From Desulfobacterales bacterium (GTDB taxonomy: Bacteria; Desulfobacterota; Desulfobacteria; Desulfobacterales; UBA11574), in NCBI GenBank assembly GCA_041548585.1, contig JBFESJ010000001.1, forward strand, positions 1-52,216: a DNA stretch of 52,216 bases, written 5' to 3'. Below the pieces are notes generated by a model, which saw only the letters and a program-made list of their open reading frames with translations, searched no databases and was not told the origin of the DNA. Shown piece by piece: positions 21,291-23,081 of the stretch (position 1 is the stretch's first letter; the number at the start of each line of letters is the position of its first letter). The position numbers and the translations under genes were made by a program.

Positions 21291-21614
21291 TTAACAGCAG
21301 CCATTGCTTTGGTCTTTGGGAGATTCGGTATGGGTTTCGATCACACAGCAACAGGATCCTTCTCTACCCAGAGCCGAATTGATAACAGCGGCGGCACAGC
21401 CCACACCCGCCTGCACGGTTAACGCTTCCGTCGGGCAGTTCATTGCGCAAGCGCCGCACTCCATACAGGCATCAATGTTTTCGATCTGGACCCGCTGGTC
21501 GTTCATGCTCAAAACCGCATGTGGGCAAACCATGATGCACATGCCGCAGCCCGAGCATTTTTCCTTGTCCAGTTTAAGCGTTACGACCTCTTTGAGATAT
21601 AACAATTCCTTCAT
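21291..21614 (-). CDS. hgcB: mercury methylation ferredoxin HgcB
   Basis: The 107-aa ORF has CSGCGMCIMVCP and CMECGACAMNCP motifs plus a C-terminal ...SNGCC tail. It starts 12 nt after the hgcA stop. Confidence 0.9.
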   Translation of the reverse strand: MKELLYLKEVVTLKLDKEKCSGCGMCIMVCPHAVLSMNDQRVQIENIDACMECGACAMNCPTEALTVQAGVGCAAAVINSALGREGSCCCVIETHTESPKDQSNGCC

Positions 21615-21626
21615 TTTCTAAAACCT

Positions 21627-22688
21627 TTAAGATATAAATCGTGGTCCAAGCCACAGACCCAATCCCACCACTCCGGCGGTAATTTCAAGGGGCACGGCCC
21701 ATTTCATCTCTTTTTTTACCCCGGAAAGAGACGTGTAGGTCGAAGCACCGGTAAAATTCATGGCAAGATAGGCAGAGACGGCCGGGGCCAGAAGAAACCA
21801 GGCCAGGACATTCAGATAATCCAGCCAAATGTTGAGATAAAATGCCCCGAAAACAGTGACAAAAAGTGTTGTCATCAAGCCCATGATCAAGCCTTTCTGA
21901 GAAAAGGCTCGGCCCGGAAGCCAGGGCAACAGAAGCGGCGTTAAAACCGCTCCAGCAAGCAGCGCGCCCAGCAAATAGAACACGGCCAAGAGGCCATAGT
22001 TCAATGCACCGGACCAGAACCCCGAAGCTGACCCCACTCCGCCGAGCAGGAAAAAAACAGGCAATATGATGACAGACCATTTTAAAGCACTCACCAGTTC
22101 AACGGGAATCAGGACGGCCCTTTCTAATGCGGCAAATGTCTTTCGCCGCATTTCAGGGGTTGCCTTTAGGCCGGCATCCAGAAAAACCGGTAAATCAATG
22201 GCTCGAATGGGGCCAAAAATAACGTTAAAGCCGATGCGTTTTTTCACCTTGTATGCTGCAACGCCGGGACCTGACAGTTGCGGAAGAATCAGCTGTCGGT
22301 GTGATACGACACGTTTCAACCCGCTGGATTTGACACACCGAACCAGCTCATCCGTTCCAAATGTCCCTTTTCCGGCCGCACACCAGACATTGATGCCTTT
22401 GGTGTCCAGAACCAGAATCCAGGCGTGTCGATCCGTCAGGGTTTCACGCAATCGATCAAAACTCATCTTGTAATTGGCGGTAACCAGAACCGGAGATCGA
22501 TCATTGGGCTCACCAAGTGCATAAAGACCGGGATCTACAGTATAATGCATTCGACCGACATCCCAGCGCGCCTTAATACTCCCCCAACGATCCGACCCAC
22601 TCAGAACGGGAGATATTTTAGGTACATCGCCCACCGGTGTCTGAACCGAACCAATGACAAACGGCTGATACATATCAGGAAGGCTCAA
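21627..22688 (-). CDS. hgcA: mercury methylation corrinoid protein HgcA
   Basis: The 353-aa ORF has the diagnostic cap-helix motif GINVWCAAGKGTFG in its N-terminal half. The C-terminal half contains about 5 hydrophobic segments. Confidence 0.92.
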   Translation of the reverse strand: MSLPDMYQPFVIGSVQTPVGDVPKISPVLSGSDRWGSIKARWDVGRMHYTVDPGLYALGEPNDRSPVLVTANYKMSFDRLRETLTDRHAWILVLDTKGINVWCAAGKGTFGTDELVRCVKSSGLKRVVSHRQLILPQLSGPGVAAYKVKKRIGFNVIFGPIRAIDLPVFLDAGLKATPEMRRKTFAALERAVLIPVELVSALKWSVIILPVFFLLGGVGSASGFWSGALNYGLLAVFYLLGALLAGAVLTPLLLPWLPGRAFSQKGLIMGLMTTLFVTVFGAFYLNIWLDYLNVLAWFLLAPAVSAYLAMNFTGASTYTSLSGVKKEMKWAVPLEITAGVVGLGLWLGPRFIS

Positions 22689-22877
22689 CCGAGCCTTTTC
22701 CTGCTGAGGTCAGCAACTACTTTTTAACGATTCCGCCGGATCTGAATCTTGAATAGATTGATTTTTAGATAAATCGAAAGTGTTTAGGGTCATAAAAAGC
22801 GCTCCCATGTGCGCATCCATAAAGCATGTCTATTTTTTTAAGGACAATAGATACGCATCGTTAAATTATCGCTGCCG

Positions 22878-23081
22878 CTATGAGGCTGGATAATTCATCT
22901 CTTTTAGTGTGTTCCTGATCATTTCCAGCGTAGTCGGGGATTCCCATTCAACCGTAATGCTTTTATTTTCAGGATTGCCTTCTACGGATTTAACCCCTTT
23001 CAGTTCTTTCAAGTCGTTTTGAATCGACATCACACAATGGCCACAGGAAATATTGGGTATCGAAAACGTTTCTTTTGCCAT
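22878..23081 (-). CDS. heavy-metal-associated (HMA) domain metallochaperone, CopZ/MerP-like
   Basis: The 67-aa ORF has the metal-binding motif IPNISCGHCV near the N-terminus and a length consistent with a beta-alpha-beta-beta-alpha-beta fold. Confidence 0.8.
   Translation of the reverse strand: MAKETFSIPNISCGHCVMSIQNDLKELKGVKSVEGNPENKSITVEWESPTTLEMIRNTLKEMNYPAS

Follow-up and report, generated by a model that had tools for sequence, protein, structure and literature searches.

Gene content and organization of the operon

The object of this analysis was a 52,216-nucleotide (nt) stretch of DNA from a Desulfobacterales bacterium (GenBank assembly GCA_041548585.1, contig JBFESJ010000001.1, positions 1 to 52,216), termed the window throughout the paper. 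On its minus strand a gene for a small protein of the heavy-metal-associated (HMA) family is followed by the mercury-methylation genes hgcA and hgcB and by an operon for respiratory complex I (nuo). A sequence-only reading of the same DNA had already pointed to these genes and had proposed a dedicated soft-metal chaperone next to hgcA. The conserved operon of a copZ-like gene, hgcA with a selenocysteine (Sec) codon and hgcB is a lineage-specific variant of the hgcAB locus, and this operon was previously without systematic description.

First, the identities of HgcA and HgcB were established. Using the NCBIfam profile NF040863, HgcA reached 454.6 bits (cut-off 275) and matched profile positions 1-324 of 325. 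The cap-helix motif INVWCAAGK with the Co-ligand Cys was present, and its N, W, C and G were invariant in an alignment of 67 sequences. Four clear hydrophobic, putatively transmembrane segments were found in the C-terminal part at residues 226-260, 261-293, 300-324 and 327-347 (numbering of the 388-residue protein; Kyte-Doolittle scale, 19-residue window), while a weaker fifth one near the C-terminus was seen by eye only. The hgcB gene (21614..21291, minus strand) starts 12 nt after hgcA and encodes a ferredoxin of 107 amino acids (aa) with two predicted [4Fe-4S] clusters, which scored 118.2 bits with NF040864 (cut-off 99). Its translation shows CSGCGMCIMVCP and CMECGACAMNCP as the two CX2CX2CX3CP motifs, a mid-protein Cys in GVGC and a terminal Cys-Cys pair in the C-terminal GCC. 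Both assignments of the sequence-only reading were upheld by these results. The pair is a genuine hgcAB of the already known kind, for which Hg(II) methylation is predicted. It resembles hgcAB of Pseudodesulfovibrio mercurii ND132 and Geobacter sulfurreducens (Parks et al., 2013), where a corrinoid protein bearing the cap helix NVWCAAGK plus a transmembrane domain at the C-terminus is likewise followed by a ferredoxin with two [4Fe-4S] clusters and terminal Cys-Cys. The upstream partner of hgcA differs. In P. mercurii ND132 an arsR-like regulator gene was reported directly upstream of hgcA and co-transcribed with hgcAB, whereas the window carries the HMA/CopZ-type gene at this place.

For comparison, 80 species-level hgcA loci from GTDB genomes were used, with HgcA 48-80% identical to that of the window. 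These were the best 80 of at least 598 matches, a sample outside of which the more distant methylators (methanogens, Firmicutes, Desulfovibrionales) are found. At an HgcA identity of at least 74%, the order HMA-hgcA-hgcB-nuoA was observed in six of six HgcA-selected loci (window, L001, L002, L176, L177/178 and L179).

A consensus scan placed a sigma-70-type promoter-like element upstream of the HMA gene (23139..23110, minus strand; TTGACT, 18 nt, TATTAT). Its GGTTGAC -35 box and a TAxxTA -10 box were kept in nearly all of the 13-17 aligned clade loci. The HMA gene (23081..22878, minus strand) and hgcA are separated by 84 nt (22877..22794, minus strand), with the Shine-Dalgarno sequence GGGAG in front of the hgcA ATG. 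The sequence-only reading had given 190 nt for this spacer, most of which proved to be coding, since hgcA begins with ATG 22793. In relatives the homologous gap was 11 nt in five cases, -4 nt in one and 32-53 nt in ten. No terminator was detected in this gap, neither by consensus scan in the window nor by folding of the gaps of the relatives. From the conserved promoter upstream of the HMA gene and the short terminator-less gaps we conclude that HMA gene, hgcA and hgcB almost certainly form one operon.

As stated before by the sequence-only reading, the 590 nt upstream of the HMA gene hold no convincing open reading frame (ORF); only ORFs of 62 aa (without Pfam match) and 44 aa were found. This region gave no Rfam match and, except for the promoter segment, no homolog in any fetched locus. 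The flanks upstream of the HMA gene differed between clade members, with the CBS/NMO context of the window shared by the close relative L179 and FtrD-like/MacB ABC genes or a glyoxalase-family gene in others. The genes lying further upstream in the window (23671-25920, minus strand) are for two CBS-pair proteins in succession, of 299 and 156 aa, as well as for a PAS protein that stands alone.

An extended hgcA frame with an in-frame UGA codon

The hgcA model of the sequence-only reading (22688..21627, minus strand) started at TTG 22688 and turned out to be truncated. Upstream of this TTG the frame reads ...MTLNTFDLSKNQSIQDSDPAESLKSSC-TGA-PQQEKAR-LSLPDMYQPF and continues through the TGA to ATG 22793, which is preceded at a distance of 8 nt by the GGGAG sequence. 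Reading the UGA (22712..22710, minus strand) as Sec (U) in the context S-C-U-P-Q, the complete frame (22793..21627, minus strand) encodes 388 aa with Sec at residue 28, and thus a Cys-Sec tail which the shorter model had missed.

The window and 36 of the 80 species-level loci have a TGA exactly 106 codons before NVWCAAG. It is preceded by a Cys codon in the window as well as in 28 of the 36, while the reversed order U-C was encountered in a single locus of the whole set. A further 27 loci have no TGA, carry CC or CxC at the equivalent N-terminal site and are continuous in frame there. Within the clade the extension comprises 27 codons in 14 loci (of 15 that could be delimited) and 25 or 26 codons in three others, and its ATG has a recognizable Shine-Dalgarno sequence upstream in most loci. 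Together with ATG and Shine-Dalgarno sequence, the length and frame of the extension were kept in 15 of the 17 clade loci inspected. Screening the window for other selenoprotein candidates with in-frame TGA, only hgcA showed a Cys-TGA followed by a long open frame.

Some loci deviate at the Cys-Sec site. L016 has C-S-P-K with Ser in place of Sec, L046 has G-U-C with the order reversed, and L008 has C-U-C.

Folding of the RNA just downstream of the UGA yielded a hairpin resembling a selenocysteine insertion sequence (SECIS) element (22703..22676, minus strand), composed of CAGG, a bulge AA, AAGGCUC, the loop GGUU, GAGCCUU and CCUG. The loop starts 20 nt past the UGA, and its G is invariant. The TTG 22688 of the shorter gene model sits inside this hairpin. 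Across 37 UGA-type sequences the core 5 base pairs were paired in 94.6% of the cells, compared to 33-63% with slid partners. Compensatory double changes (U-A to C-G, G-C to A-U) were counted in 13 cells versus 4.3 +/- 1.5 in shuffles, and the observed value was reached in none of 500 shuffles. With these changes the pairing is preserved but the amino acid sequence is not (AQVS, ARQG, TQAG, VQVN). Folding of the 48-nt segments that follow UGA in Sec-type loci and CC in Cys-type loci gave -15.6 versus -11.5 kcal/mol, the former being the more stable (Mann-Whitney p = 4e-5). Alignment and folding thus show that the SECIS-like hairpin covaries and is specific to UGA-type loci. Rfam gave no match in the whole window at the gathering threshold and none in 20900-23750 at E <= 1; hence no curated Rfam family covers this hairpin or the one in front of nuoA described below.

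Several observations speak against a translated extension. It is fast-evolving and shows no third-position excess (0.41 / 0.31 / 0.39), so that the case for a coding extension is built on the conserved frame, length, ATG with Shine-Dalgarno sequence and Cys-UGA, and not on the codon-position test. No selA, selB, selD or tRNA-Sec gene was found within the 52-kb window. Moreover, database HgcA gene models comprise 347-353 aa, and the NCBIfam HgcA profile begins after the extension region. All this would agree with UGA 22712 being a true stop, the 27-codon frame being an upstream ORF, a leader peptide or non-coding, and HgcA starting at TTG 22688 or ATG 22673, an explanation that we regard as highly improbable given the Cys codon kept before the TGA across 28 other species, the open frame with CC or CxC in homologs without TGA, the covarying hairpin at SECIS distance that is absent from Cys-type loci and encloses the annotated TTG start, and the published record of Sec-HgcA.

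Sec-HgcA as such is already described. For most HgcA proteins an N-terminal extension reached via one UGA after Cys was reported by Haft and Gwadz (2022, bioRxiv 10.1101/2022.07.06.499078), and HgcA is listed as a CU selenoprotein in a 2026 review (PMC13188914). The window agrees with the description of Haft and Gwadz in the single in-frame UGA right after Cys, in the length of 388 aa, which falls in their range of 363-400 aa, and in the existence of Cys-Cys variants in other species. It differs in the surrounding residues. The PCUGP invariant in their 20 proteins is absent here; the window has SCUPQ and the clade x-C-U-P-[KQGR], with the CU dipeptide kept. The SECIS-like hairpin and its covariation, documented in the present analysis, go beyond this earlier work. 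Taken from the comparative evidence, the assignment of hgcA to 22793..21627 as the gene of a selenoprotein with a Cys-Sec N-terminal tail is strongly supported.

The Cys-Sec tail is the obvious candidate for a metal acceptor site of HgcA. Since gene callers cut hgcA short at the Sec codon, this putative metal-binding tail is missed in hgcA surveys of the clade and by the primers and structural models made for it.

Relatives and possible role of the HMA protein

The HMA gene encodes a protein of 67 aa of the CopZ family with the metal site C13-G-H-C16. It matched Pfam PF00403 with 54.9 bits (cut-off 24.8) over nearly its full length (residues 5-64 on profile positions 1-61 of 62), in line with the HMA-fold protein with CGHC proposed from the sequence-only reading. 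Among named families the CopZ models NF033795, NF033794 and TIGR00003 scored best, all of them under their cut-offs (46.4, 39.1 and 45.2 bits versus 91, 95 and 62). The MerP model TIGR02052 was likewise below its threshold (29.4 bits, cut-off 92.55). The best sequence matches in the PDB were all Cu chaperones or metal-binding domains of Cu-ATPases, including CopZ and CopP. With the metal site beginning at residue 13 there is no room for a leader, and the protein is without signal peptide; it would therefore reside in the cytoplasm, the same compartment as the N-terminal domain of HgcA and HgcB.

HMA-family proteins 66-78% identical to that of the window are encoded directly upstream of copA, with individual look-ups at 73-75%, and the metal loop PNISCGHCVMSI is identical in hgcA-linked and copA-linked proteins. 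A neighbour-joining tree of the 67-aa proteins, poorly resolved, placed the hgcA-linked sequences nested among the copA-linked ones. Like the copZ-copA operons of B. subtilis, E. hirae and Desulfobacterales, the window encodes an HMA protein, here of 67 aa, whose β1-α1 loop contains CxHC. The window differs from them in that the next gene is hgcA and not copA, and in that the Met of the usual MxCxxC is replaced by Ile (NISCGHC). No copA was found within the window. At the level of its sequence the HMA protein is indistinguishable from Desulfobacterales CopZ encoded beside copA, and no specialization was seen. The HMA gene as a CopZ-family gene taken into the hgcAB operon by one lineage is strongly supported by these likenesses.

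In order to see how general this linkage is, loci were selected by their HMA protein as well as by HgcA. In 73 assessable HMA-family metagenome loci, the HMA gene was located upstream of a copA-type P1B ATPase gene in 41, upstream of hgcA in 14 and upstream of other genes in 18. All 14 hgcA partners encode HgcA 74-80% identical to that of the window. Many metagenome assemblies from sediments and wetlands contain this lineage. Among 72 related species-level hgcA loci without the HMA gene, the upstream neighbour was a MarR-family gene in ~18 and an ArsR-family gene in ~7, in accord with the arsR-like regulators that are reported to be co-transcribed with hgcAB. A presumed chaperone for copper (HMA/CopZ) together with ArsR and ArsB was reported on the hgcAB scaffold of an acidophilic sulfate reducer (Gionfriddo et al., 2020, bioRxiv 10.1101/2020.02.03.933291). 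That case is anecdotal and comes with arsenic-resistance genes, whereas a clade-wide, tight three-gene operon without ars genes is found here.

Arsenic-related functions were also met among database HgcA proteins. In the representatives P0241, P0242, P0359 and P0265 the N-terminal part corresponds to MIP (aquaglyceroporin), ArsP, LMWPc (ArsC-like) or GNAT. These fusions are probably read-throughs of the gene caller from an upstream gene on the same strand, and they point to arsenic-related genes directly 5' of hgcA in other lineages. A domain fusion of HMA with HgcA was sought among the long HgcA representatives; their N-terminal parts were MIP, ArsP, LMWPc or GNAT, never HMA.

How could the HMA protein contribute to methylation? 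In the mechanism we propose, the sigma-70-type promoter, ~30 nt upstream of the ribosome-binding site of the HMA gene, would drive HMA(copZ-like)-hgcA-hgcB. Translation of HgcA would start at ATG 22793, with UGA codon 28 decoded as Sec with the aid of the hairpin just downstream, so that a flexible pair of Cys and Sec would precede the corrinoid domain. The HMA gene would have been recruited from a copZ-copA context by the ancestor of one Desulfobacterales lineage, and its product would be a cytosolic protein carrying soft metals, Cu(I) and Hg(II) among them, on the thiolates of its CxxC site. Its most likely role would be to handle soft metals for HgcAB in the cytoplasm. Two options are conceivable for this role. 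Ligand exchange may bring Hg(II) to one of the two tails, Cys-Sec in HgcA or Cys-Cys in HgcB, or else the protein may buffer Cu(I)/Hg(II) and so shield Fe-S clusters, corrinoid and selenol from these metals.

A delivery of Hg(II) by ligand exchange is made plausible by analogy to the mercury detoxification enzymes, as NmerA delivers Hg(II) to the Cys pair at the C-terminus of MerA. Common to the mer relay (MerP, MerT, NmerA, MerA) and the window is an HMA-fold CxxC protein encoded together with an enzyme bearing terminal Cys/Sec pairs. This is meant as a working analogy only. The locus is not a member of the mer systems: next to the MerP score under cut-off and the missing signal peptide, no mer genes (merT, merA, merR) were found in the window. 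For a functional link of any kind between the HMA protein and HgcAB we see a chance slightly short of even. A dedicated donor of Hg(II) or of another native soft metal, with a mer-like relay from the HMA CxxC via the C-U of HgcA to the C-C of HgcB near the methyl-cobalamin site, we consider unlikely. We are aware of the fact that CxxC HMA domains in general bind Hg(II), so that an Hg(II)-binding test on the HMA protein would not discriminate.

Several findings weigh against a role in methylation. No residue separating hgcA-linked from copA-linked HMA proteins was fixed; the sole trend, W46F, was seen in 12 of 17 hgcA-linked sequences, and the window keeps W. A survey of hgcA neighbourhoods had been set beforehand as the check on which the idea of a dedicated chaperone would stand or fall, and HMA genes were not enriched next to hgcA. 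Using a hidden Markov model and phmmer seeded with CopZ, MerP and Atox1, no HMA ORF was detected near hgcA in any of the 75 other species-level loci that extended far enough upstream (HgcA 48-72% identical). By the 74-80% identity of all 14 HgcA partners, the linkage points to a single HgcA clade and one ancestral event. With 0/75 in the other loci and the arsR-like gene in ND132, the HMA protein is not generally needed for methylation. Furthermore, the adjacency of nuoA to hgcB, probably unrelated to methylation, is equally conserved (17/17 HMA-linked clade loci), so that synteny at such depth does not by itself show a shared function.

A search for a second copZ-copA in clade genomes via CopA homologs returned no place from a sample accession known for HMA-hgcA. 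It yielded a related copA locus of a different kind. In L180 (JGI 3300005645, Ga0077109_1000006) a CopA ortholog, 77% identical to copZ-linked CopA, is encoded without copZ upstream, and an EB_dh-family gene abuts. This arrangement was read on 16 contigs, 15 of them given as similar to the one place that is shown. In related bacteria copA can therefore persist with no copZ beside it.

The strongest competing explanation takes up these points. The HMA gene may simply be the lineage's ordinary CopZ, a Cu(I) chaperone for a CopA encoded elsewhere, displaced by chance and vertically kept, with a co-transcription that is meaningless for methylation. This would account for the identical metal loop and the high identity to CopZ encoded upstream of copA, for the likeness to Cu chaperones and not to MerP in PDB and NCBIfam, for the missing HMA gene beside hgcA in 75 other species, and for a neighbouring nuo operon that is just as conserved with no evident functional tie. 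L180, as at least one related copA lineage without adjacent copZ, makes a displaced copZ plausible. Chance displacement fits less well with the very tight coupling, down to a gap of 11 nt in five relatives and an overlap of 4 nt in one, with the single conserved promoter lying upstream of the HMA gene, and with an HMA-hgcAB block that persists while its upstream neighbours are reshuffled. It also fits less well with the promoters. Some copA-linked copZ promoters have CsoR-like ATACCnnnnGGGGTAT or ATACTATATTAGTAT boxes, which are absent from the window promoter, and no operator common to the promoters of hgcA-linked and copA-linked copZ genes was found. Overall, a displaced CopZ is quite possible, though we would rather bet against it.

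Compared to the dedicated soft-metal chaperone suggested by the sequence-only reading, the coupling to hgcAB was borne out, while enrichment elsewhere and specialization were not. As the linkage is not general to methylators, it cannot serve as a marker, and whatever the HMA protein contributes would be lineage-specific or dispensable. For the unsettled question in mercury biogeochemistry of how Hg(II) reaches HgcAB within the cell, the clade offers a concrete and testable three-component system, in which a cytosolic carrier of the CxxC type and two tails, one with Cys-Sec and one with Cys-Cys, are predicted from one transcription unit. If the relay from the HMA protein to HgcA and HgcB were true, the operon would be the first genetic handle on the metal reaching the methylation site.

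The complex I operon and other features of the window

Downstream of hgcB the nuo operon follows on the same strand (21009..9274, minus strand; 12 genes), as the sequence-only reading had stated. It contains nuoA, B, C, D, H, I, J and K, three confirmed genes for antiporter-like subunits and the ORF 10707..9274. The Pfam matches were Oxidored_q4, Oxidored_q6, Complex1_30kDa, Complex1_49kDa, NADHdh, Fer4, Oxidored_q3, Oxidored_q2 and three times Proton_antipo_M. The fourth large ORF (10707..9274) is assumed to encode another antiporter-like subunit. Between nuoD and nuoH and elsewhere in the operon no ORFs for nuoE, nuoF and nuoG were found, and the operon is consequently without the NADH-oxidising module. 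A gap of 238 nt separates two of the antiporter-like genes (14119-14357).

The spacer between hgcB and nuoA measured 159-291 nt in the clade loci. It holds a promoter-like element (21118..21090, minus strand; TTGACA, 17 nt, TAAAAA), of which CTTGACA (window 21118..21113) was invariant in 11 of 11 clade loci with diverged flanks, followed 17 nt on by a TAxxAA box (TAAAAA or TATGAA). As this -10 box lacks the final T, it was not called by the consensus promoter scan. The weak terminator-like hairpin noted by the sequence-only reading between hgcB and nuo does exist (21062..21041, minus strand; with a U9 run). This AT-rich hairpin (3 GC pairs) recurs in 9 of the 11 clade loci and ends 32-40 nt before the nuoA start. 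It lies, however, downstream of the nuo promoter-like element, in the would-be leader. Because of the invariant CTTGACA and the -10-like box upstream of the hairpin, nuo probably has its own promoter and forms a separate transcription unit with the hairpin in its leader. The order of promoter and then terminator suggests a leader attenuator or another regulatory element for complex I.

A single long transcription unit of HMA-hgcAB and nuo, which would tie methylation or metal handling to the respiratory complex as hinted before, appears very unlikely to us: the genes do share one strand, their adjacency is kept in all 17 clade loci and there is no terminator-like hairpin other than the AT-rich one with its 3 GC pairs, but the spacer of 159-291 nt carries CTTGACA and the -10-like box, 17 nt apart, ahead of the hairpin in 11 of 11 loci, and nuoA follows hgcB in no hgcAB locus outside the clade.

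Two further regions of the window attracted attention. On the plus strand a polyamine cluster was found (36455-42759) with genes for a pyruvoyl arginine decarboxylase, a deoxyhypusine-synthase-like protein, an agmatinase-family protein, a sigma-54 response regulator, two tandem AdoMet decarboxylases and a spermidine synthase. On the minus strand two paralogous small ORFs (32478-32732, 84 aa; 35012-35260, 82 aa) showed ~70% nucleotide identity over 91 nt. The stretch around them is gene-sparse and also encodes HU, DksA and two small zinc-ribbon ORFs.

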